NCBI GenBank assembly: GCA_041664245.1
Contig: JBAYLC010000001.1
Location: forward strand, 86,654-150,653
Origin: Minisyncoccota bacterium
GTDB lineage: Bacteria; Patescibacteriota; Minisyncoccia; UBA6257; 2-01-FULL-56-20
Direction of reading: 5' to 3'
DNA: 64,000 nucleotides
A program made the translations under genes and the position numbers. Below, one piece after another: positions 2,513 to 47,459 of this stretch; positions within the stretch are counted from its first letter, which is position 1; the number at the start of each line of letters is the position of its first letter. The notes under the pieces were generated by a model that saw only the letters and a list, made by a program, of their open reading frames with translations, did not search any database and was not told the origin of the DNA.

Positions 2513-2538
2513 CAAATCAGGTGTGCTATAATGTAAAA

Positions 2539-3321
2539 ATGAAATTAAAAAAATATTTAATTCCATTTGTTTTTCTGATTTTTTTAATCGCACCAATAAA
2601 TTCCAAAGCTGATCTTCCGGCGCCGTTTCTGATAACTTATTATTTCGATTACAAAACAAATAATTCTTCCCAACTGATTGAAGCAAAGCAAATTAGTTGC
2701 GATGATGAAGTCTGTGTAAGCGGGGATACTCGTAAACTATCTTGCTTTAGTGGTCCTAATGATCGTTGTCAACTGGAAAGTTTTCAATTATGGGGTCCAC
2801 AGAAGTTAATTGTCACCTTTTCCGATAAGGTAAGGCAGAGTAAAGTTTTCAACCAAAAAATCATAAGTACTAAATTTTCTAATCATAGCCAAAGCTTCAC
2901 TGTTGTAGTGGAAGATTCACAATTGATAGTTCAAGACTTTGTTTTTAATAATTCATCTAATTCATCTTCCGATTTAATGATTTTTATTAAGACTTTTCTA
3001 ATTTCTATTTTGATTGAAATTCTTGTCGCATTTTTTTATTTATCACTCATAAGAACACCTAAAAAACTTCAAATTATGGTATCAGTTCTGATAATAAATA
3101 TTATTTCTCTGCCACTCTTATGGTTTGTCCTCCTCCCAAAATTTAGTTCAGTTAACTATGGCCTCATTATAAGTGAATGTGCAGTGGTAATTATTGAAGC
3201 TCTTCTTCTCTTCCTAATCAATCGGAAAATATGGAATTTCTGGGTATTTCTACTACTTAGTATCGCTATGAACTTTTTTAGTCTAGTCCTCGGTACAATT
3301 ATTTATTCAATAACTTTCTAA
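2539..3321 (+). CDS. hypothetical membrane protein (signal peptide, Cys-containing ectodomain, C-terminal multi-TM region)
   Basis: Long ORF with an MKLKKYLIPFVFLIFLIAP signal and a C-terminal half of hydrophobic helices. An extended -10 TGcTATAAT (2524-2532) ends 6 nt before the ATG, so the mRNA would be leaderless. The ORF track begins 18 nt upstream at a non-ATG codon. Confidence 0.5.
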   Translation: MKLKKYLIPFVFLIFLIAPINSKADLPAPFLITYYFDYKTNNSSQLIEAKQISCDDEVCVSGDTRKLSCFSGPNDRCQLESFQLWGPQKLIVTFSDKVRQSKVFNQKIISTKFSNHSQSFTVVVEDSQLIVQDFVFNNSSNSSSDLMIFIKTFLISILIEILVAFFYLSLIRTPKKLQIMVSVLIINIISLPLLWFVLLPKFSSVNYGLIISECAVVIIEALLLFLINRKIWNFWVFLLLSIAMNFFSLVLGTIIYSITF

Positions 3322-3341
3322 GTTTTTATTTATTTACATCT

Positions 3342-3370
3342 TTGACTAAAAACAAATCTCGCGCTAAATT
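3342..3370 (+). promoter_or_regulatory. sigma70-type promoter TTGACT-17-TAAATT
   Basis: Hexamers at 3342-3347 and 3365-3370. The -35 region TTGACTAAAAAyAAATC is duplicated at 3628. Confidence 0.4.
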
Positions 3371-3469
3371 ACCGGAAGTATTGAACCGGTCCAGCAACAC
3401 CCTTTCTCGCCACTTTTTGTGGTATTCGCAGTTCCCGTTGCCATGCTGCGCGGGAGAAAGGAGACAAAG

Positions 3470-3568
3470 ATGTTTTATGGTGCCGGTTCAGACGGTCAGA
3501 AAAACCGGGTTCGGGGCGGTAGTTCTGATGGTCACCACCGCGACTGCGGTGCCGATGGTGATTGCTAG
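3470..3568 (+). CDS. candidate mini-ORF (32 aa, Gly/Asp-rich: MFYGAGSDGQKNRVRGGSSDGHHRDCGADGDC)
   Basis: AAGGAG sits 5 nt upstream of the ATG. The ORF lies inside a promoter-to-terminator unit (3342-3618) in a locally GC-rich segment. It is absent from the ORF track because it is under 60 aa. Confidence 0.25.
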   Translation: MFYGAGSDGQKNRVRGGSSDGHHRDCGADGDC

Positions 3569-3590
3569 ATTGTAAGAGATCTAGTCGATC

Positions 3591-3618
3591 GGGGAGAGCA
3601 GAAGCTCTCCCTTTTTTT
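3591..3618 (+). terminator. Rho-independent terminator
   Basis: GGGGAGAGC-aga-GCTCTCCC hairpin followed by TTTTTTT. Confidence 0.65.
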
Positions 3619-3627
3619 ATTCATCCA

Positions 3628-3656
3628 TTGACTAAAAATAAATCCAGTACTATTAT
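3628..3656 (+). promoter_or_regulatory. sigma70-type promoter TTGACT-17-TATTAT
   Basis: Hexamers at 3628-3633 and 3651-3656. This is a paralogous copy of the 3342 promoter. Confidence 0.4.
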
Positions 3657-3717
3657 TTTCTCAGCACATCAGCCTCAAAACTTAGAGGCATTTGATTCGC
3701 ATCTTTTTCTAACCCAC

Positions 3718-3810
3718 ATGGGGGAAAGGAGGCTGCCTTTCATTAGCAGTATTAGTTTTGATGGCTACCGGCCCACCCGCAAAAATGGCGGTGGCGCCGA
3801 CGGAACCTAA
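3718..3810 (+). CDS. candidate mini-ORF (30 aa: MGERRLPFISSISFDGYRPTRKNGGGADGT)
   Basis: Lies in the second promoter-to-terminator unit (3628-3976). Its Gly-rich C-terminus (KN-GGG-ADG) resembles the first mini-ORF. It has no SD; the AGGAGG at 3727-3732 is internal. Confidence 0.2.
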   Translation: MGERRLPFISSISFDGYRPTRKNGGGADGT

Positions 3811-3931
3811 GCGTACTGCTGACGCCGGTTCCCATTTCCTCAACTTTTCTGGCTTGTCAGAATAGTTGAGTTCCGAGGAAAATGGAGCTGGATATCCCAA
3901 AGGGTCCTAAACCAGCTCCGAAGGCTAGAAT

Positions 3932-3976
3932 TGCTAGAAATTCTAGCGAGGGGAGATCATCTGATCTCCCTTTTAT
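3932..3976 (+). terminator. tandem hairpins ending in a Rho-independent terminator
   Basis: Two palindromes, GCTAGAA-A-TTCTAGC and GGGAGATCA-tc-TGATCTCCC, followed by TTTTATT. Confidence 0.6.
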
Positions 3977-3981
3977 TATAC

Positions 3982-4010
3982 TTGACAAATAAAAATAGGC
4001 ATGCTATAAT
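3982..4010 (+). promoter_or_regulatory. consensus sigma70 promoter TTGACA-17-TATAAT (family member a)
   Basis: Exact consensus hexamers at 3982-3987 and 4005-4010. It is followed by a 66-nt leader ending in a GGAGGA SD. Confidence 0.65.
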
Positions 4011-4076
4011 ACAAAAAGCATATTGAGTCAGAAATAATTGAATTAATTAATAAACACTTGCTTCAAGGAGGATGTC

Positions 4077-4793
4077 ATGAAGCGCAATTTGTTTTCACTG
4101 TTGATGGTCGCCCTGTTTGTTTTAACTTCATTATCTGCCGCTCAAGCCAAAATCGGCCTCTCAGTCAGTAACAAGGTAATGGGTGGCTACATTACCGGTG
4201 TGGGCAAAATGGTTTACCCCGAGCCGGTTCATCAACTCGATCTCGTGCTGAATATGTCTCACGGCTTCTACGCGGAAGGTTGGATGTCGAATGCCCTTAA
4301 TGGTCGGCCAAACTCTGGTCGCGAAATCGACTGGACCATTGGCTGGTCCAACAAGTTTATGAGCGCCGGCATTTGCTACATCGATCTCAATCGGTTGTTT
4401 GACGGAAATTCCACCGACTTGATTGAGCCGTTTGTCGAACTGACCGCGCCGGCGATTGGCGGACTTGTATCGCCATACGTGAAAGGCGAACACTTCCACG
4501 CCACGAGAAATTCAGACCAGCTGTCGGCCACTTCGCTTTCTGCCGGATTGAAAATCAAGTTTCAGCCGGTAAAAAGTCCGTTTTGCTTTCAGCAGAACAT
4601 TAGAGTCGTTCATAACGACGGCCTCTTCGGTTGCGACGAGGGATATCTAGTTCGCTACGAGATGTGGTTGAATATCTCTATACCGAACGGATCGATCAAC
4701 TTACTCCAACTCCGAGTTTTCAATCCGTTGTCCAAGATGAGCGACCGCAAAACCCAAACCGCGGTCGGCTCGGGGATCACTTTCAACTTCTAA
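4077..4793 (+). CDS. secreted hypothetical protein (paralog 1), SPI signal, beta-barrel-like C-terminal motif ...AVGSGITFNF
   Basis: Signal peptide with an AQA|K cleavage site. Shares GRPNSGREIDWTIGW, PLSKMSDR and C-terminal GSGITFNF with the 4965 ORF. Strong SD. Confidence 0.75.
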   Translation: MKRNLFSLLMVALFVLTSLSAAQAKIGLSVSNKVMGGYITGVGKMVYPEPVHQLDLVLNMSHGFYAEGWMSNALNGRPNSGREIDWTIGWSNKFMSAGICYIDLNRLFDGNSTDLIEPFVELTAPAIGGLVSPYVKGEHFHATRNSDQLSATSLSAGLKIKFQPVKSPFCFQQNIRVVHNDGLFGCDEGYLVRYEMWLNISIPNGSINLLQLRVFNPLSKMSDRKTQTAVGSGITFNF

Positions 4794-4816
4794 GTGATTC
4801 CCAAACTCACCCAAAC

Positions 4817-4842
4817 GGGCTCTGCAATGCAGGGCCCTTTTT
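4817..4842 (+). terminator. Rho-independent terminator
   Basis: GGGCTCTGCA-aat-GCAGGGCCC followed by TTTTT. Confidence 0.55.
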
Positions 4843-4869
4843 CTATACTTTTTACCCGTTTATTTAATC

Positions 4870-4898
4870 TTGACAAATCAAAATAGGCATGCTATAAT
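4870..4898 (+). promoter_or_regulatory. consensus sigma70 promoter TTGACA-17-TATAAT (family member b)
   Basis: Hexamers at 4870-4875 and 4893-4898. The promoter plus leader (4868-4964) is near-identical to 3980-4076. Confidence 0.65.
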
Positions 4899-4964
4899 AT
4901 AAGGAGCATATTGAGTTAGAAATAATTGAATTAATTAATAAACACTTGCTTCAAGGAGGATGTC

Positions 4965-5675
4965 ATGAAGCGCTTTTCTATCACCCTAATGGTTGTTGCT
5001 CTCGTCGTCACCGGTTGTTTATCATCAACCGCTGCCACACGGAAGTTCAGCCTCTCCAACGAGGTACTCTCTAGCTACATAGCCGGAGATGCTGAGAATC
5101 TCCACCGCGGGCCGGTCAATCAGACCAATTTTCAAATCAGTTTTAGAGGTTTTTACGTGGGACTCTGGTCTTCAACTGGTCTCGATGGCAGACCTAACTC
5201 CGGCAGAGAAATCGACTACACAATCGGTTGGGCCAATAACGTATTTAGTGTCGGCATCTCGCGCTTCGACCTAAATCCACTTTTCTCTTCTAAGGGTGGA
5301 GATATTATCCAACCATTTGGAGAGATTACAATTTCGGTTTCGAAAGAAGTTTCTCCATTCCTAGCCGTAGAACATCTTTACGTCACAAAGGATCCGGCGA
5401 AGAACTCAGCGACATCAGTTGCCGCTGGTGCGAAACTGAATTTCCAACCAGAAGGAAGCACCGTGAGCTTCTCTCATAATTTGAGAGTTGCCTACAGCGA
5501 TGGAGTTTATGGGGTGGATAAGGGATATATTTTCCGTTATGAATTCCGACTAAATAAGGAATTCCCCGGCGGAACGTTCAACCTCTTCCACTTTCGTTAT
5601 CTCCAACCGCTATCCAAGATGAGCGACCGTTGGAACGAAGTCGCGGTCGGCTCGGGAATCACCTTTAATTTCTAG
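4965..5675 (+). CDS. secreted hypothetical lipoprotein (paralog 2), same family as 4077-4793
   Basis: Lipobox-like VVTGC at the signal peptide end. About 40% identical to paralog 1 and shares its C-terminal AVGSGITFNF. Strong SD. Confidence 0.75.
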   Translation: MKRFSITLMVVALVVTGCLSSTAATRKFSLSNEVLSSYIAGDAENLHRGPVNQTNFQISFRGFYVGLWSSTGLDGRPNSGREIDYTIGWANNVFSVGISRFDLNPLFSSKGGDIIQPFGEITISVSKEVSPFLAVEHLYVTKDPAKNSATSVAAGAKLNFQPEGSTVSFSHNLRVAYSDGVYGVDKGYIFRYEFRLNKEFPGGTFNLFHFRYLQPLSKMSDRWNEVAVGSGITFNF

Positions 5676-5707
5676 CCTGGTGATTCCCACAATCAAACCG
5701 AGGGTTC

Positions 5708-5740
5708 TGCAACACAGAACCCTCATTTTTTTATTTTTAT
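5708..5740 (+). terminator. Rho-independent terminator
   Basis: GAGGGTTCTG-caacaca-GAACCCTC followed by T7. Confidence 0.65.
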
Positions 5741-5818
5741 TTATCAGAATGATAAATAAAAATAAATCCTTCGTAGCATCAGGCAAAGAATGGTCTATTA
5801 GTATCCGCAACTTTTAAT

Positions 5819-5846
5819 TCATAAATCATAAATCATGAATCATAAA
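5819..5846. repeat. 7-nt tandem repeat (TCATAAA x4, one variant)
   Basis: Read directly from the sequence. It lies immediately 3' of the folC stop. Confidence 0.7.
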
Positions 5847-5852
5847 TCACCC

Positions 5853-7124
5853 CTAGAAGCTCTCCCTCCTCTCCAAAATCCACTCCTCCGGATACCACTT
5901 TTGTCTTAACTCTCCGGTCAAAAAAAACGAACCCGTTGCCAAAATTAAATCTTCCGGCTTGGCTAATTTAAAAGCTTTACTTAGCGCCTGCCACGGATCC
6001 AAATAAACTTCCACCGGAATTTTTTTATACTTTTTAATTTGCTCGGCCAGCGTAAAGGGATTTCGGCATTTTCTTTCTTTTATTTCAAATCGTGTCGCCA
6101 AAGCGTAGTCCGCTTTCGGCGCAATCACTTTTAAAATCGAATCAATATCTTTATTTTCCGCCGCCGCTAAAACCAAAAACAATTTTCTGTATTTTAGTTT
6201 TTCCAAATTTTCCACCGTGCTTTCCATCTTCGATTCATTATGCGCGCCGTCTAAAACTACCAGCGGCTTTTTTTGAACAATCTCAAACCGGCAGGGGAGC
6301 CGAGATTCTTTTATTCCCGCCGCGACGAATTTATTTTGAATTCCCGTCGCGCCAAGAATAGCCCGAACGAGCGCCGCGTTAGTCAAAAGATAATCTTTTG
6401 CCACTGCCGGCACTAAATTAAATTTTGATCCTGTCTTTTGGCACTCCTCTCTAAAAATATCCAAAAGCGCCGGCCGCGCCTCGGTTGTAAAAAATTGCGA
6501 ACCGCGCTTAATGATTCCCGCTTTATCTCGCGCAATTCTCGAAAGCGTTTTCCCTAAAATATGAGTATGGTCGTAGTTGATATTAGTAATCGCCGTTATT
6601 AATGTTTTTTGAATCACGTTTGTGGAATCATATCTTCCGCCCATCCCCACTTCCAAAACCGCCCACTCGCATTTTGTTTTTTTGAAATATAAAAAAGCGA
6701 TGGCGGTAAAGATTTCAAAGTAAGACGGCCCGCCGTCTGGTCCCTCGCGAAACGCTTTATCGATTATCGGTTTCAGTTCCTCAACAATTTTCGCCAATTC
6801 ATCCGGCGCGATATATTTCTCGCCGACTTTAATTTTTTCAATTGAGGTGGTCACAAAAGGGGAGGTGAATAGCCCCGCTTTTTTTCCCGCCTTAACTAGT
6901 CCCAAATGAACGGCACTCGCCACCGAGCCTTTGCCCGACGTTCCGGTGATGTGGATGTATTTTAGTCCTCGCTCCGGCCGGCCGAGAAGTTCCAAAAGAT
7001 AATTCATCCGCCTCAAGTAAATCTCCGGATTTTTATGGTCGCTAAGATAATCCTTCCCTAACGGAAGGTTATAAAGCCCCTCTAAAAATCCAATCGCCTT
7101 AAAATATTTATCAAACTTTTTCAT
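5853..7124 (-). CDS. folC: folylpolyglutamate synthase / dihydrofolate synthase (Mur ligase family)
   Basis: P-loop HITGTSGKGSV, DGAHNE motif, and the overall Mur-ligase architecture. Confidence 0.85.
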   Translation of the reverse strand: MKKFDKYFKAIGFLEGLYNLPLGKDYLSDHKNPEIYLRRMNYLLELLGRPERGLKYIHITGTSGKGSVASAVHLGLVKAGKKAGLFTSPFVTTSIEKIKVGEKYIAPDELAKIVEELKPIIDKAFREGPDGGPSYFEIFTAIAFLYFKKTKCEWAVLEVGMGGRYDSTNVIQKTLITAITNINYDHTHILGKTLSRIARDKAGIIKRGSQFFTTEARPALLDIFREECQKTGSKFNLVPAVAKDYLLTNAALVRAILGATGIQNKFVAAGIKESRLPCRFEIVQKKPLVVLDGAHNESKMESTVENLEKLKYRKLFLVLAAAENKDIDSILKVIAPKADYALATRFEIKERKCRNPFTLAEQIKKYKKIPVEVYLDPWQALSKAFKLAKPEDLILATGSFFLTGELRQKWYPEEWILERRESF

Positions 7125-7182
7125 TATCCAATTAGCGGATTATAACCAATCCATTAATATTTTCCCATCTTTTTGCCTGCTA

Positions 7183-7210
7183 TTGACAAATTCAATTAAT
7201 ATGATATAAT
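7183..7210 (+). promoter_or_regulatory. sigma70 promoter TTGACA-16-TGaTATAAT (family member c)
   Basis: Hexamers at 7183-7188 and 7205-7210. The downstream CTAAAAAGCAAA resembles the other family members. Confidence 0.55.
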
Positions 7211-7262
7211 CTAAAAAGCAAACCCAGAAACTAAACATAATCGAAAATAGAAAGAAGGGAAA

Positions 7263-17693: not shown

Positions 17694-17890
17694 AACCCTG
17701 TTATGAATAAGGCCTGATAAACTCACAAAATATCTAATTTTGACGTGAGCTGTCGGCCTTTCGACAGCTTTTTTAAAACTTAAAATAAGCCACCAAAATA
17801 CATACAGAGTAATTGTTAATCAATTACTCGCGAGAGTTTTTTAGTTGTCCCAATATTTTTTTTGATTTTTATTTTAAAATCTTATTTTTT

Positions 17891-19445
<1,555 letters not shown>

Positions 19446-19630
19446 AAACTAACTTTTGAAAAAATCTTTCTGCATAAAGCAGATTGTAAATTAATTCAAA
19501 AGGTTTAGGCCGATCATGTCTCTCTACTCTGAAGCACTGCAAAGTGGATCATGGTAGTGAGACATGCGCATTAATTGGGACAACTAAAAAGCTCTTTGAG
19601 ATTTTCATTTTTTTTGGTAGAATCGGATAA

Positions 19631-43129: not shown

Positions 43130-44218
43130 ATGAGAAAATTTCGCCATTTTTTCGTGCATTTTAAAAAAAACCAAAGTGACAGTCGGTCCGGCTTCACTCT
43201 TCTTGAACTAATAATTTTCTCCGCTATTTTTGCGATTGTTGCGGTTAGTTTTACCGCCATTTTGATTTCAATAACCGGCGTTAGTATTCGCCAAACTGGC
43301 TCATCGGCTGTTAATCAAGAAAGCCAGTTTGTGATGCAAACTATCCAACGCTACATTCAAGAGTCAAGTTTAATTGATATCAAGCTGCCCTCAGTGCAAA
43401 CAAGCAACCCAACTTCAACATCCTTCACAAGTTTATCACTCACCACTACTACTCTCCAGCTAGTCATGCCCACCAGCACCACCGACGGCGGTGATGGAAC
43501 AACTAGTACTGTAAAAATATACGCCTCATTAGATGGAGTAGTATATCTTGAAGGTCGTTCTGCGACTCCTGAAAAACTAACCACCAACAATGTTAGAGTC
43601 GATAAATTAGAATTTACAAAACGTTCTAATCCGCCAAGCGGCCACGACATCGTGGATGTGGCTCTCACTATTTCCTATAATACCCCCGATATTACAAAAA
43701 AATTCTCCCAGTTTCTTCAGACTTCAATTTCACGGGCCAATGCAGCATCGTTCGACGACAATCTAGTGCCTATCTCTAGTGGCGTAAGTGCTTATAGCGT
43801 CGGTCTCCCCGGCAACAGATGGAATTCTATTAACGGCATAATAAATTTTGACGAGAGTGATCGTATTGGTATTGGTATCAGTTCTCCGCCTGTCCCTGGC
43901 TATCAACTCTACGTCAATAACGGCAATCTAGGCGTCAAAGGAACAGCCGCCGGTTCCTCAACTTTTCAGGGTAACCTTACTCTCGTTCCAGCTGGCGGCC
44001 AAACAACCTCCTCATTTAAAATAAATCCAGGAATTATGTCGCTTAGAGGAATTATGTCGATTTCAAGTAGTAGTTTCACTGATGGAGTTTCATGCAACGA
44101 TCAAACAAACGCCGGATACATAAAATACGATGAAGCTTCAAAAAAACTCCAGGTCTGTATATTTAACGGCGGTTGGAGTTGGCAGTATATAATGGCCACT
44201 ACCACTCCTAATTTTTAA
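43130..44218 (+). CDS. type IV pilin-like protein (class III prepilin signal), large (362 aa)
   Basis: A leader ending ...SDSRSG, then FTLLELIIFSAIFAIVAV, the hallmark G|F-T-L-x-E prepilin peptidase site with a hydrophobic helix. Confidence 0.75.
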   Translation: MRKFRHFFVHFKKNQSDSRSGFTLLELIIFSAIFAIVAVSFTAILISITGVSIRQTGSSAVNQESQFVMQTIQRYIQESSLIDIKLPSVQTSNPTSTSFTSLSLTTTTLQLVMPTSTTDGGDGTTSTVKIYASLDGVVYLEGRSATPEKLTTNNVRVDKLEFTKRSNPPSGHDIVDVALTISYNTPDITKKFSQFLQTSISRANAASFDDNLVPISSGVSAYSVGLPGNRWNSINGIINFDESDRIGIGISSPPVPGYQLYVNNGNLGVKGTAAGSSTFQGNLTLVPAGGQTTSSFKINPGIMSLRGIMSISSSSFTDGVSCNDQTNAGYIKYDEASKKLQVCIFNGGWSWQYIMATTTPNF

Positions 44219-44256
44219 AATCACTTTTATTTTGTGCTATAATTAAAAATAAAAAA

Positions 44257-44814
44257 ATGAATAACAGCAAAAAAACAATTATCAGCTTAGTGGTAATTCT
44301 TATCGTTATAATTCTAGTAGCGGTTGGAATAATTTTAGGCGGTAGTAATTCCGCTAAAAATCCAACTTCTGATAACAACCCGGTTTTAAACAGCAACGCC
44401 AGTAATTCTCAAGATATTTCTAATCTTCCCCCGATTGGATCTGTTCCGATCGGCACCTCTGTTCCTAATAAAGATTCAAATACGCCAAGCAATGTCGCAA
44501 AGCCGGATTCCGTTTTGCCCGCTGCGCCAGGTTCTGATTCTAGCTATCGTAATTTCGAAATTAAAGCTCAAGGCGATAAGTTTTCTCCCGATACCATTAT
44601 CGTCAACAGAAATGATGTTATTACAATAAAAATCTCAGCGGTTGATAAAAATTATGATTTCACTCAATCTGACTATGGTTTAAAAATTAACATCCCAAAG
44701 GGCGAAATAAAAGACATTCCTTTTCAAGCCTCCGCCTCTGGCAAGTTCACTTTTTTTTGTAGTTCCTGCGGTGGTCCGAAAAAGGGTCCGATCGGTTATC
44801 TAATTATTAAATAA
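44257..44814 (+). CDS. hypothetical membrane-anchored extracytoplasmic protein (possible cupredoxin-like fold)
   Basis: N-terminal TM anchor, a low-complexity Ser/Asn/Pro linker, and a C-terminal FTFFCSSCGG motif. Confidence 0.4.
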   Translation: MNNSKKTIISLVVILIVIILVAVGIILGGSNSAKNPTSDNNPVLNSNASNSQDISNLPPIGSVPIGTSVPNKDSNTPSNVAKPDSVLPAAPGSDSSYRNFEIKAQGDKFSPDTIIVNRNDVITIKISAVDKNYDFTQSDYGLKINIPKGEIKDIPFQASASGKFTFFCSSCGGPKKGPIGYLIIK

Positions 44815-44819
44815 AAATC

Positions 44820-45236
44820 ATGAACAAAAAAATTATTATTATCTTAATTATTTTAGTTATCGTTTTAATCGCCTTAACAGTTTGGCTCGTTTTGAAATTA
44901 GGAAACTCAGACACTGCAAAAAACGCAAGCAATACGTCCGATCTTTCTTTCGTAACTTTAACAAACGGAGAAACTTATTTCGGCAAGCTTTCTTTTTTCC
45001 CATCCCCAAGACTCACCAATGTTTTTTTCCTTCAACGCACTGCTGACGCTAAAAATAATCCTCAAATCTCACTCCAAGCATTCAAAGACACTCTCTGGGG
45101 GCCGGTTGATGAGCTTAATCTAAATCCTAAAGAAATAATTTCTTGGGCTAAGCTAAGAAGCGATAGCCAAGTTGTTCAAACTATTACCAGCCAGTTTAAC
45201 CAACCCAAACCGGCGCCAGTATCTCAACCGCAATAA
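44820..45236 (+). CDS. hypothetical membrane-anchored protein
   Basis: N-terminal TM helix. ORF only. Confidence 0.4.
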   Translation: MNKKIIIILIILVIVLIALTVWLVLKLGNSDTAKNASNTSDLSFVTLTNGETYFGKLSFFPSPRLTNVFFLQRTADAKNNPQISLQAFKDTLWGPVDELNLNPKEIISWAKLRSDSQVVQTITSQFNQPKPAPVSQPQ

Positions 45237-45239
45237 CTC

Positions 45240-47459
45240 ATGTTAAGTAAAAATATAAAAATTTCCCTTATTATCATCTGCGCCCTATCCGTTTCAGTTG
45301 CCGGTTTCTGGTTAATCTCAAAAACTTTTGCCTTTATTGGTCCCTCGGCCAACCCACCTAGCGGTGACGGAGTATTTAAGGCTATCCTGTTAGATGGCGG
45401 TGGAGTGGGTCTAAAAATTGGTAATGGTATAGAATCAATCACCGATACGAGGCTTCTAATTCACAATCAAGAATCAAACCTTGTCGATCTCAAAATCTAC
45501 AACCCAAACGCAATTGATAGGCAAAATATTTTTGTCGTCAATGGTGCTTCTGGTGTTTCCGTCGGCACAACAACTGTCCCTGCTGTTTTTTTAGGAGGCA
45601 ATCCTAAGTATAGGCCGGGAGCCTGCAGTAATACAGTGGGAGAAAGCGGCTCTAATTGCCCGCTAATGTACATAGGGGGAAAATTAATAAGCGAAACCAT
45701 CGGCACCTACAATATCAACGCTTCCGGCACCGTCACTTCCGACGGGGGTTTTATTGGTAATCTTATCGGCGGTGTCTCTGCTAGTGGTGTCACTGCCGGA
45801 ATATTTGGTTCGGCCGGAGTGGGTGGTATCTATGCTTTTCCGAGTAGTTTAGGAGTTGGTCCTAATCCCTCACTTCCAGAATTTCAACTTGATCTATACG
45901 GCGACGCTACTAATAGCGGAATAATTTCTCGGGGAACATATCTCTCAGGAGATACTCTTTCCACTAGTGGAGCCGGTACTAGATTGATTTGGTATCCCCG
46001 AAAAGGGGCCTTTAGAGCGGGCGGAGTTTCTGGCACTCAGTGGGACAATACTAACATCGGTGATTATTCTATTGCGCTTGGTAATGATGTCATCGCCTCC
46101 GGTGGTATTGGTTCCACCGCGATTGGTGATAGTGCCACCGCCTCTGGGTGGTATGGTTCCACCGCGATTGGTGAAAATGTTACTGCCTCCGGCAAGGGTG
46201 GTTCCACCGCGATTGGTTATTACAACACTGCCTCCGGCGAAGGTGGTTCCACCGCGATTGGCGCCAATAACACCGCCTCCGGCAAAAATGGCTCCACAGC
46301 ACTTGGTTATTACACTCAAGCACTAGCAACAACTTCTATTGCCATTGGCACCTATGTCAGATCTTCTAATTATAATTCCATGATCTTGGGTAGTGGTTGT
46401 CGAACTAACGATTCAACTTGGCCCTGCACGATGATAAACAACACCCCCGAATCACTTTACGTAGGTTTCAATAGTGATATCCCTACCCTAGTCGTTACTC
46501 GGAGTAATGGCACAAGCACGACTGGTAATGTCGGCATTAGTAAAACTTCACCTACCTACAAATTAGATGTCGGCGGCGACGTCAACATCACCGGCACTTA
46601 CCGCGTCAACGGAGCAGCATTCGTTTCCGGCATAAACGGAACCGGCACTGATTTATATGTTCCTAAATGGACTAGTGCCGGTACGAAGCTCACTAACTCA
46701 AGTATTTACGATAATGGTGGACAGATAACTCTTGGCACTTCCGCCATGAATCTCTCTCTTCCTGGCCTGATTAATAGTGATCTCACCTTCCGGCCAGACT
46801 ATACCGCTACTATAATTGGCGGTAGCGGAGGAGCAAGTGCCCCATATGATGGTATGCCTCTCTCAATAAAAGGTGGTGCAGCAACCGGAGGGGGTTTTAT
46901 TGGTGGCAATCTCTATCTTGATGGAGGTACTCCCACTGGTGGATCAGCGGCTGGTAATGTTCTAATACAAACTGGTGTGGCTGGCAATGTAGGTATCAGT
47001 AAAACTCCTTCTTCTATTTATAAACTAGATGTCGCCGGCGACATTAATATCACCGGTAGTTATCGTATTAACGGAGTGGCTTTCAATCCTGTGACCGGCA
47101 CCGGTGCTTCTACTAATGTAGCAAAATGGACTGGCCCCTCATCACTCGGAAACTCAATAATGACTGAAAACGCGACTGGGGTTGGTATTGGCATAGCTAA
47201 TCCCGGCCAAAAATTAGATATTCAACCCACAGCTGGCTACCCCTCGATTCTCCTAAGAAGCTCATCTGCTTCTTCTGGCGGGGCATATATTTTTATGCTC
47301 ACTGCAAACGGTAGCGCATCAGGAGGAGATGCCGTTTGTTCCGCAATTGTGGCCAACTCCAAATGCCTTATGTCGTGGAGTTCGGTGGGTTCTAAGCAAA
47401 ACTGTGGTGCTAGCGGATCGGCAAGCGAAAGATATATCTGCGTTGGTTTTGCTCTCTAA
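45240..47459 (+). CDS. large secreted repeat protein with YadA-head/Hep_Hag-like 15-aa repeats (GSTAIGxxxTASGxG)
   Basis: Signal peptide. Five 45-nt tandem repeats at 46111-46335 encode STAIG..TASG units. Gly/Thr/Ser-rich throughout. Confidence 0.6.
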   Translation: MLSKNIKISLIIICALSVSVAGFWLISKTFAFIGPSANPPSGDGVFKAILLDGGGVGLKIGNGIESITDTRLLIHNQESNLVDLKIYNPNAIDRQNIFVVNGASGVSVGTTTVPAVFLGGNPKYRPGACSNTVGESGSNCPLMYIGGKLISETIGTYNINASGTVTSDGGFIGNLIGGVSASGVTAGIFGSAGVGGIYAFPSSLGVGPNPSLPEFQLDLYGDATNSGIISRGTYLSGDTLSTSGAGTRLIWYPRKGAFRAGGVSGTQWDNTNIGDYSIALGNDVIASGGIGSTAIGDSATASGWYGSTAIGENVTASGKGGSTAIGYYNTASGEGGSTAIGANNTASGKNGSTALGYYTQALATTSIAIGTYVRSSNYNSMILGSGCRTNDSTWPCTMINNTPESLYVGFNSDIPTLVVTRSNGTSTTGNVGISKTSPTYKLDVGGDVNITGTYRVNGAAFVSGINGTGTDLYVPKWTSAGTKLTNSSIYDNGGQITLGTSAMNLSLPGLINSDLTFRPDYTATIIGGSGGASAPYDGMPLSIKGGAATGGGFIGGNLYLDGGTPTGGSAAGNVLIQTGVAGNVGISKTPSSIYKLDVAGDINITGSYRINGVAFNPVTGTGASTNVAKWTGPSSLGNSIMTENATGVGIGIANPGQKLDIQPTAGYPSILLRSSSASSGGAYIFMLTANGSASGGDAVCSAIVANSKCLMSWSSVGSKQNCGASGSASERYICVGFAL

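Follow-up and report, generated by a model that had tools for sequence, protein, structure and literature searches.

Two tandem genes for predicted porin-like beta-barrel proteins share a near-identical expression cassette in a Paceibacterota bacterium of the Candidate Phyla Radiation

Here, a tandem gene pair of a bacterium of the Candidate Phyla Radiation (CPR) was analyzed in a 64-kb window, i.e., the whole stretch of DNA under study (64,000 nucleotides of contig JBAYLC010000001.1), to which all coordinates given without a contig handle refer. Region 3979-5740 of this window holds two head-to-tail gene units with a period of 888 bp, and the two genes, named A and B in the following, are paralogs. 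The features of the region are:

3981-4086, plus strand: 5' cassette of gene A, comprising promoter, leader, Shine-Dalgarno site and first three codons; the tract that appears to have been homogenised with that of gene B
3982-4010, plus strand: promoter of gene A, TTGACA-17-TATAAT with an extended -10 TG, consensus at 12 of 12 positions
4011-4076, plus strand: leader of gene A, A/T-rich and unstructured according to folding and Rfam scan, with a GGAGGA Shine-Dalgarno site at 4067-4072
4077-4793, plus strand: gene A, open reading frame (ORF) of 238 aa, NCBI locus tag WCX12_00475
4817-4837, plus strand: intrinsic terminator of gene A, a T-run behind a 9-bp stem, 7 pairs of which are GC
4869-4974, plus strand: 5' cassette of gene B, comprising promoter (4870-4898), leader (4899-4964), Shine-Dalgarno site (4955-4960) and first three codons
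4965-5675, plus strand: gene B, ORF of 236 aa, paralog of gene A, NCBI locus tag WCX12_00480
5700-5724, plus strand: intrinsic terminator of gene B, a hairpin and T-run; its stem GAGGGTTCTG...CAGAACCCTC is common to the related locus L001 described below, and the terminators of gene B and of L001 are orthologous

The NCBI label of the source record of both proteins is Candidatus Paceibacterota bacterium, in accordance with the CPR-type cell supposed in the original prediction, which had been made from the DNA letters. A and B are located between alaS and folC, and the same contig of 286,926 bp includes a 16S rRNA gene and the S10 ribosomal operon. The bacterial 16S rRNA gene of the window (17887-19450) is followed by a response regulator gene and not directly by a 23S rRNA gene; furthermore, the window contains five tRNA genes, an S12-S7-EF-G-EF-Tu-S10 ribosomal cluster, type IV pilin-like genes and a gene for a PG_binding/Germane protein. 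The assignment to CPR is based on the NCBI labels and on gene contexts. When the window was searched with a profile of the protein family (hmmsearch), gene B was recovered with an E-value of 5.8e-78 and no further family copies were found in the window. The GC content at third codon positions (GC3) of gene A was 0.62, which is 3.1 standard deviations above the mean of 63 window ORFs and exceeds the values of the ribosomal protein and EF-Tu genes (0.35-0.56), while gene B showed a GC3 of 0.50.

The two cassettes agree at 100 of 106 positions (94.3%) without a gap, and this is the best block at the fixed 888-bp offset. Near-identity had been predicted for 3980-4076 and 4868-4964, and 91 of the 97 positions indeed agree at this offset; however, the predicted end proved too early, since the identity runs through codon 3 (to 4086). 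An exact match of 49 nt (4031-4079 and 4919-4967) is unique to these two places in the window and was equalled in none of 100 shuffles, and apart from the A and B sites the cassette does not occur elsewhere in the window. Outside the cassette, the identity between the two units drops to about 40% upstream and about 57% downstream. Given a coding nucleotide identity of 56.8%, the binomial probability of at least 100 matches in 106 positions is about 3e-18, and the near-identity of the cassettes is therefore real and beyond chance.

Promoter B displays the same TTGACA-17-TATAAT at 12 of 12 consensus positions with TG ahead of the -10 hexamer, and in each copy 66 nt separate the -10 hexamer from the ATG, with the GGAGGA Shine-Dalgarno site 4 nt ahead of the latter. 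Thus, all the expression signals predicted for the two copies were found. The GC content of cassette A is 28%, and the three codons inside the cassette encode MKR. A highly expressed gene would be expected to combine these features, i.e., a consensus promoter, a leader rich in A/U and free of structure, and a strong Shine-Dalgarno site, and the presence of an own terminator behind each gene indicates two separate monocistronic units. Other members of the family also tend to be preceded by strong promoter-like sites, their leaders spanning about 40-120 nt from -10 hexamer to ATG, and one of them (on contig L003) also has a perfect promoter with 12 of 12 consensus positions.

The exact 29-mer of promoter A (TTGACAAATAAAAATAGGCATGCTATAAT) was additionally found on an unrelated metagenome contig (L006, JGI Ga0209542_10134874, element 1578-2420), where it precedes about 800 nt of GC-rich sequence ending in a long hairpin. 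No plus-strand ORF of at least 60 aa is present in the first approximately 560 nt of this element, and two short ones follow on this strand, one of 74 aa from 2170 and one of 60 aa from 2249. Its folding energy of -332 kcal/mol as compared to -275 ± 7 kcal/mol for shuffles (z = -7.7), with no significant Rfam match (best E-value 0.16, far under the gathering score), suggests that it may be a large unannotated structured RNA. The occurrence of the 29-mer on L006 implies that the promoter, including its spacer, is a conserved module beyond the barrel genes.

The A and B proteins share about 47-48% amino acid identity (BLASTP 111/238, E-value 4e-76), i.e., 47% by BLASTP rather than the approximately 40% estimated originally. 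Between their coding sequences, third-position identity is 38%, dN (non-synonymous substitutions per site) is 0.45 and dS (synonymous substitutions per site) is about 3.4 and thus saturated; the last 30 codons show 72-77% nucleotide identity. A k-mer protein search returned the two window proteins and one ortholog, P0002, with about 77-78% amino acid identity to A, and nothing else. The gene for P0002 is present as a single copy on Logan contig L001 (SRR22388063), an independent sequence, where it occupies the same position between alaS and folC. The comparison of A, B and L001 gave the following values:

Coding sequence: A-B 48% amino acid identity, dS 3.4; A-L001 78%, dS 1.4; B-L001 48%, dS 3.0
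Promoter of 29 nt: A-B 28/29; A-L001 28/29; B-L001 29/29
Leader of 66 nt: A-B 62/66; A-L001 49/70; B-L001 49/70

Beyond A, B and L001, the next relatives are at most about 33% identical, which argues that A and B are each other's closest paralogs and were duplicated within the lineage rather than acquired separately. Since dS is saturated between A and B and only 1.4 between A and L001, the duplication predates the split from the L001 lineage. By contrast, the leader groups A with B apart from L001, while the coding sequence groups A with L001 apart from B. A leader that has diverged between genomes and is near-identical within one of them points to gene conversion after the split, and gene conversion, one of the two readings offered in the original prediction, is supported by this pattern. 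The contrast between tract and flank (100/106 as compared to 57% in the coding sequence) together with the conflicting phylogeny, established with one outgroup, is the signature of such an event; hence the leader was most likely homogenised within this genome by gene conversion, of which the direction and the number of events are inferred. Moreover, codons 4-8 (22/24) and the terminator stem of L001 are B-like, whereas its remaining coding sequence is A-like, and this mosaic suggests repeated recombination between A and B. One copy may have been lost in L001 through recombination close to the 3' end, where conservation is high, and the mosaic would fit such a loss.

In Helicobacter pylori, for example, the ends of babA and babB, two paralogous genes for outer-membrane proteins, are known to evolve in concert. 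As in paralogs of this type, the central coding sequences of A and B are diverged while ends are near-identical, as would result from intragenomic recombination. Unlike in the babA/babB type, the tract is here essentially a non-coding expression cassette with promoter, leader and three codons, and the 3' end is moderately similar (72-77%). By analogy, the behavior of the cassette would be ordinary concerted evolution, here restricted to the expression module. Local recombination in porin genes is also the subject of a preprint (bioRxiv 10.1101/2021.09.21.461324). The cassette thus offers a clean small case of putative gene conversion confined to an expression module, which would keep diverged paralogs co-expressed.

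With respect to the encoded proteins, the export signals were assessed as patterns only. Protein A starts with MKR and a hydrophobic core leading to a type I cleavage site (AQA↓K) after residue 24; in protein B, MKR and the hydrophobic core are followed by a lipobox-like VVTG-C18 (Cys codon 5016-5018). Both patterns had been predicted, and in B a potential type I site (STAA↓T) is additionally found where the cleavage site of A aligns. Accordingly, both proteins display the cleavable signal peptide pattern of the outer-membrane beta-barrel superfamily. V-T-G-C18 of B also fits a coded PROSITE-style rule for the bacterial lipoprotein lipobox, as do 7 of 137 short family members, which makes lipid anchoring of B plausible. 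Both proteins end in AVGSGITFNF, as had been noted originally, and their last residues G-I-T-F-N-F correspond to a beta-signal with terminal aromatic residue (GxxFxF). Among 151 relatives, 95 end in F and 83 show Gxx(hydrophobic)x(aromatic) at the C-terminus, and the C-terminal beta-signal is, judging from these sequences, a family trait.

An AlphaFold2 model of A, computed from a 60-sequence alignment, had a mean predicted local distance difference test score (pLDDT) of 94.8 and a predicted template modelling score (pTM) of 0.84. It comprises the signal helix followed by 12 long antiparallel strands, with loops of 8-15 residues alternating with turns of 2-7 residues; the barrel is a prediction. 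Comparison with the PDB by Foldseek yielded 97 matches with E-values of at most 1e-3, and among the matches listed all were outer-membrane barrels or engineered derivatives thereof with a probability of 1.00 (FapF, NanC, KdgM, VhGalP, PcoB, Tsx, OmpG, COG4313, autotransporter beta-domains and general porins). Normalised to query and target, TM-scores were highest for the 12-stranded VhGalP (0.61/0.68), KdgM (0.54/0.73) and NanC (0.55/0.63). Across the alignment, the dyad pattern of the strands separates a hydrophobic face (Kyte-Doolittle +1.7, 3% charged) from a polar face (-0.8, 24% charged). Taken together, strand number, structural neighbors and face charges predict an even-stranded, closed amphipathic barrel, and the beta-barrel reading of the original prediction, for which a soluble sandwich had been named as the alternative outcome of structure prediction, stood up to this comparison.

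The most conserved parts of the protein are the polar lumen face and the loops L2 (NSGRE) and L6 (SKMSDR), with E83, D85, D103, D114 and R224 as near-invariant lumen or loop residues. Such conservation speaks against a scaffold function alone and for a specific channel or binding site, probably one that prefers cations; a channel function of A and B is inferred. In this respect the proteins would resemble small monomeric 12-stranded channels of the KdgM/NanC/Tsx type. The best structural matches, KdgM/NanC/VhGalP, Tsx, PcoB and FapF, resemble A in strand number and in the alternation of short turns with longer loops, whereas sequence identity to them is only 8-12%. Unlike in the KdgM-type channels, the loops of A and B are short, with L2 and L6 among the most conserved parts; moreover, KdgM-type channels are outer-membrane proteins of diderm Proteobacteria that require the beta-barrel assembly machinery (BAM), whereas A and B occur in CPR. 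A sequence profile search of the PDB returned chance-level matches only (e.g., dUTPase with an E-value of 0.04) and no sequence relative with a solved structure.

Direct matches of A and B were confined to a single family, the putative porin Gcw_chp/TorF, and all of them were sub-threshold. B aligns to positions 1-212 of 244 and thus to almost the full profile of TIGR02001. When 1.84 billion cluster representatives were searched exhaustively with a profile, 585 relatives were recovered at E-values of at most 1e-3 and 269 at E-values of at most 1e-10, mostly of 230-260 aa; a profile k-mer search returned 10 proteins. Gcw_chp (PF09694) was detected at E-values of at most 0.01 in 27 of 60 aligned relatives (best 9.3e-9) and TIGR02001 in 17 of 60, and the only other matches among these 60 were autotransporter, OprB, DUF481 and MetA-pathway barrels. 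Because A and B miss the curated whole-protein cut-offs, they are not filed as TorF/Gcw_chp members; they appear to be distant relatives, i.e., a CPR-centred branch at the periphery of this putative-porin lineage. Like TorF/Gcw_chp, the only recurrent sequence match, they comprise about 240 aa with an N-terminal signal peptide and a predicted all-beta fold. Unlike TorF/Gcw_chp, the branch comes, where names exist, from CPR rather than Proteobacteria, and some of its members carry N-terminal polytopic helical extensions. To our knowledge, no function has been demonstrated for TorF itself.

The extended relatives, 12 of the top 151 with at least 400 aa, consist of an N-terminal polytopic alpha-helical domain, a signal-like helix with an AxA↓Q-type site and the barrel; they include P0005, P0010, P0019, P0035, P0055, P0057, P0071, P0082, P0091 and P0120 (L010 976-2439; L004 5311-6564). 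The fused N-terminal domain is conserved, falls into at least two homology groups and has no Pfam match, and no homolog of it was found in the window. AlphaFold2 modelling of P0005 gave a pLDDT of about 95 for the barrel and about 85-90 for the helical N-domain, and with a pTM of 0.50 and a disordered linker the relative placement of the domains is uninformative. In two loci examined (L002 10001-11877; L011 9996-11995), the barrel gene adjoins a gene for a transporter of the major facilitator superfamily, and in a third (L003 9986-12503) a gene for a 487-aa multi-pass membrane protein that, by its sequence, looks like an Nramp-type transporter. The adjacency in these three loci hints at a coupled uptake route.

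All eight carriers with a taxon name, i.e., the window and seven relatives, belong to CPR, the named relatives being from Doudnabacteria, Harrisonbacteria, Liptonbacteria, Paceibacterota, Kaiserbacteria and the Parcubacteria group. Confirmed matches in a scan of 185,579 species-representative genomes were three loci, found only in Paceibacterota, Kaiserbacteria and the Parcubacteria group. The 531-kb contig with barrel locus L007 carries a 3.3-kb 23S rRNA gene, about 390 nt over the Rfam model, and a 5S rRNA gene (3697-7227) without a 16S rRNA gene. Unlinked rRNA genes and insertions in rRNA genes are typical of CPR. The contexts of further relatives are mostly similar in character, with a split transketolase (L011) and DUF4012 and DivIC (L013, on a 1.05-Mb contig); L012, which carries chemotaxis genes, is less clearly CPR.

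Functional constraint alone might also have kept the cassettes identical, without any conversion, if the leader were a riboregulatory target or one for a small RNA (sRNA) or a protein. The 29-nt promoter is indeed almost invariant in A, B, L001 and even L006, and the leader is 70% identical to that of L001, somewhat above synonymous sites (third-position identity between A and L001 of 54%). However, the ortholog leader differs at 16 positions and in 5 indel columns with its gene intact. The leaders of A, B and L001, folded either alone or together with the initial codons, were less stable than dinucleotide shuffles (z of +0.6 to +1.5; +1.0 to +1.5 for leader A) and formed only a weak hairpin around Shine-Dalgarno site and AUG, and no Rfam match was obtained for the leader in a gathering-threshold scan of the window or in a scan of 3300-5900 at E-values of at most 10. 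Pairing of the leader with the adjacent RNA-like units 3372-3615 and 3657-3975 (RNAduplex) was likewise no better than that of shuffled leaders. Folding and Rfam thus gave no support for a riboswitch or structured cis-regulatory element in the leader, and the riboregulatory role suggested for it in the original prediction was not upheld; constraint without conversion is unlikely. Even less credible, and the least likely of the readings considered here, is that B arose from A by a recent duplication and then changed fast in its coding sequence, under relaxed or positive selection, with the cassette as yet undiverged. The tandem arrangement and the related flanks (GTGATTCCCA and terminator) would be in line with it, but dS of 3.4 and third-position identity of 38% between A and B, as compared to dS of 1.4 between A and L001, and the equal distance of B from A and L001 contradict it, as fast protein evolution does not erase synonymous sites.

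As to the proteins themselves, they could be secreted soluble beta-rich proteins (sandwich or open sheet) whose C-terminal aromatic residue is a coincidence, which would be supported by the report that CPR lack an outer membrane (PMC6744442) and by the scores of A and B under the curated porin-family thresholds. The confident model with its 12 long strands, the listed structural neighbors, which are outer-membrane barrels throughout, a nearly charge-free hydrophobic face opposite a polar, charged and more conserved one, and the beta-signal kept family-wide make a soluble fold very unlikely. Finally, the contig or the genes might derive from a diderm via mis-assembly, mis-binning or very recent horizontal transfer, and both the GC3 of gene A, 3 standard deviations above the window mean, and the distant relationship of the family to proteobacterial Gcw_chp/TorF would be compatible with such an origin. 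On the other hand, A and B lie between alaS and folC on one contig with the 16S rRNA gene and the S10 ribosomal operon, the same synteny is present in an independent sample (L001), and the seven named relatives all stem from CPR metagenome-assembled genomes with contigs of up to 557 kb. In addition, the nearest relatives outside A, B and L001 are only about 30% identical, which implies that a transfer was not recent, and we regard a diderm source as very improbable.

Instead, we propose an old tandem duplication of a monocistronic gene in a Paceibacterota chromosome, the copies of which would each encode a Sec-exported protein of about 215 residues forming a predicted 12-stranded porin-like transmembrane beta-barrel with a hydrophobic outer belt, a conserved polar to acidic lumen, longer loops alternating with short turns and a GxxFxF beta-signal. 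Each copy would be driven by a consensus extended -10 sigma-70 promoter of its own. The 29-nt promoter, spacer included, would be under strong purifying selection across genomes, and gene conversion after the split from the single-copy relative would have homogenised promoter, leader and first codons, whereas tracts that extended deeper into the coding sequences, which are diverged, would not have lasted. The outcome would be two functionally diverged channels, B probably lipid-anchored, under identical expression control. This combination of duplication, porin-like barrels, and constraint and conversion of the cassette is the overall explanation we consider probable.

Several points weigh against this explanation. 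The conversion is deduced from a single outgroup locus, and high, largely constitutive expression of A and B is suggested by consensus signals only. Pfam PF09694 scores reached 12.2 bits (E-value 0.18) for A and 14.5 bits (E-value 0.036) for B with a cut-off of 24, and TIGR02001 scored 15.5 bits (E-value 0.009) for B with a cut-off of 47.15. The GC3 of gene A could be due to codon selection or foreign origin, and the family may have come into this lineage from outside. Above all, CPR bacteria have been described as having a Gram-positive-like envelope with neither PilQ nor a TonB system and as lacking outer-membrane proteins (PMC6744442), cells were seen without an outer membrane by cryogenic transmission electron microscopy and genes for outer-membrane proteins are "generally missing" (PMC7137472), and CPR were placed in a monoderm clade with Chloroflexi (bioRxiv 10.1101/2021.05.31.446380). 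Among 23 window proteins scanned with Pfam, none belonged to the Omp85, POTRA, BAM, Lpt, Lol or Skp families, although such a negative on outer-membrane biogenesis in a 64-kb window says little on the whole genome. With no outer membrane reported in CPR and no BAM, Lol or Lpt in the window, the explanation does not account for the destination membrane and the insertion route of the barrels. Contrarily, an outer membrane was reported by microscopy in an OD1 endosymbiont, at least as cited from Gong et al. (2014) by Nelson and Stegen (PMC4508563). A published description of porin-like barrels in Patescibacteria was not found in our literature searches.

The surroundings of the gene pair contain further elements. 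Directly upstream of gene A, a conserved RNA-like element with strong structure (3372-3615, plus strand) is associated with a promoter-like site (3342-3370) and a terminator (3591-3612). Mean column identity is 85% (window 3322-3640 as compared to L001 1455-1722), with a higher value in the overlapping core, and exceeds that of the adjacent coding sequence (75%). Its minimum free energy of -105.8 kcal/mol as compared to -79.7 ± 4.8 kcal/mol for shuffles (z = -5.4) was attained by 0 of 200 shuffles, a C-G pair of the terminator stem is replaced by T-A, i.e., by a compensatory change, and there is no Rfam match. The element also includes a possible ORF of 32 aa that is conserved (3470-3568, ...HHRDCGADGDC). 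We regard it as a candidate for a new sRNA of about 240 nt or for a leader with a small peptide. At 3628-3975 (plus strand), a promoter-like TTGACT-17-TATTAT (3628-3656) and a terminator (3948-3973) flank about 320 nt without a convincing ORF; this unit is missing from the syntenic L001 locus. Further upstream, a 266-aa ORF (2521-3321, plus strand) starts with a signal-like segment and is hydrophobic with multiple passes in its C-terminal region; it matches neither Pfam nor NCBIfam and has a GC content of 31% (z = -2.4 as compared to window genes). Its absence between alaS and the barrel gene in L001 indicates that it is probably a lineage-specific insertion. Elsewhere in the window, a 739-aa protein that begins with a hydrophobic segment and contains YadA-head repeats (E-value 1.8e-10) is encoded at 45240-47456 (plus strand), following genes for a type IV pilin-like protein (N_methyl motif) and a cupredoxin-like protein (43130-45233). 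By their sequences, the genes at 43130-47456 may form an adhesin cluster.

The interest of the locus rests on the envelope question rather than on the promoter duplication. If the model holds, a protein with the surface predicted for A and B must sit in some lipid layer. This could be an outer layer of the CPR cell that has escaped recognition, a host's outer membrane or, as the least likely, the cytoplasmic membrane. New in comparison to known channels is the host lineage, since the barrel family, with its beta-signal intact, is centred on CPR and apparently widespread, although these bacteria are regarded as monoderm. We tentatively propose, as a possibility short of an even chance, that many Parcubacteria/Paceibacterota make abundant TorF-like transmembrane barrel channels with a BAM-type beta-signal, placed in an own outer layer or inserted into a host. 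If this is true, CPR cells would either possess an unrecognised outer lipid layer with a non-canonical assembly route or export the barrels into the outer membrane of the host, possibly via the host BAM, as a feeding or attachment pore; in that case, the N-terminal helical fusions would point to a dedicated partner, or to an anchor, within the cytoplasmic membrane. The presence of one or two membranes in CPR/Patescibacteria bears on envelope evolution, i.e., on repeated outer-membrane loss in Terrabacteria, and on metabolite acquisition by auxotrophic epibionts. A sizeable CPR-centred porin-like family, with consensus promoters at this locus, provides a concrete protein to localise, be it in the own envelope or in a host membrane.

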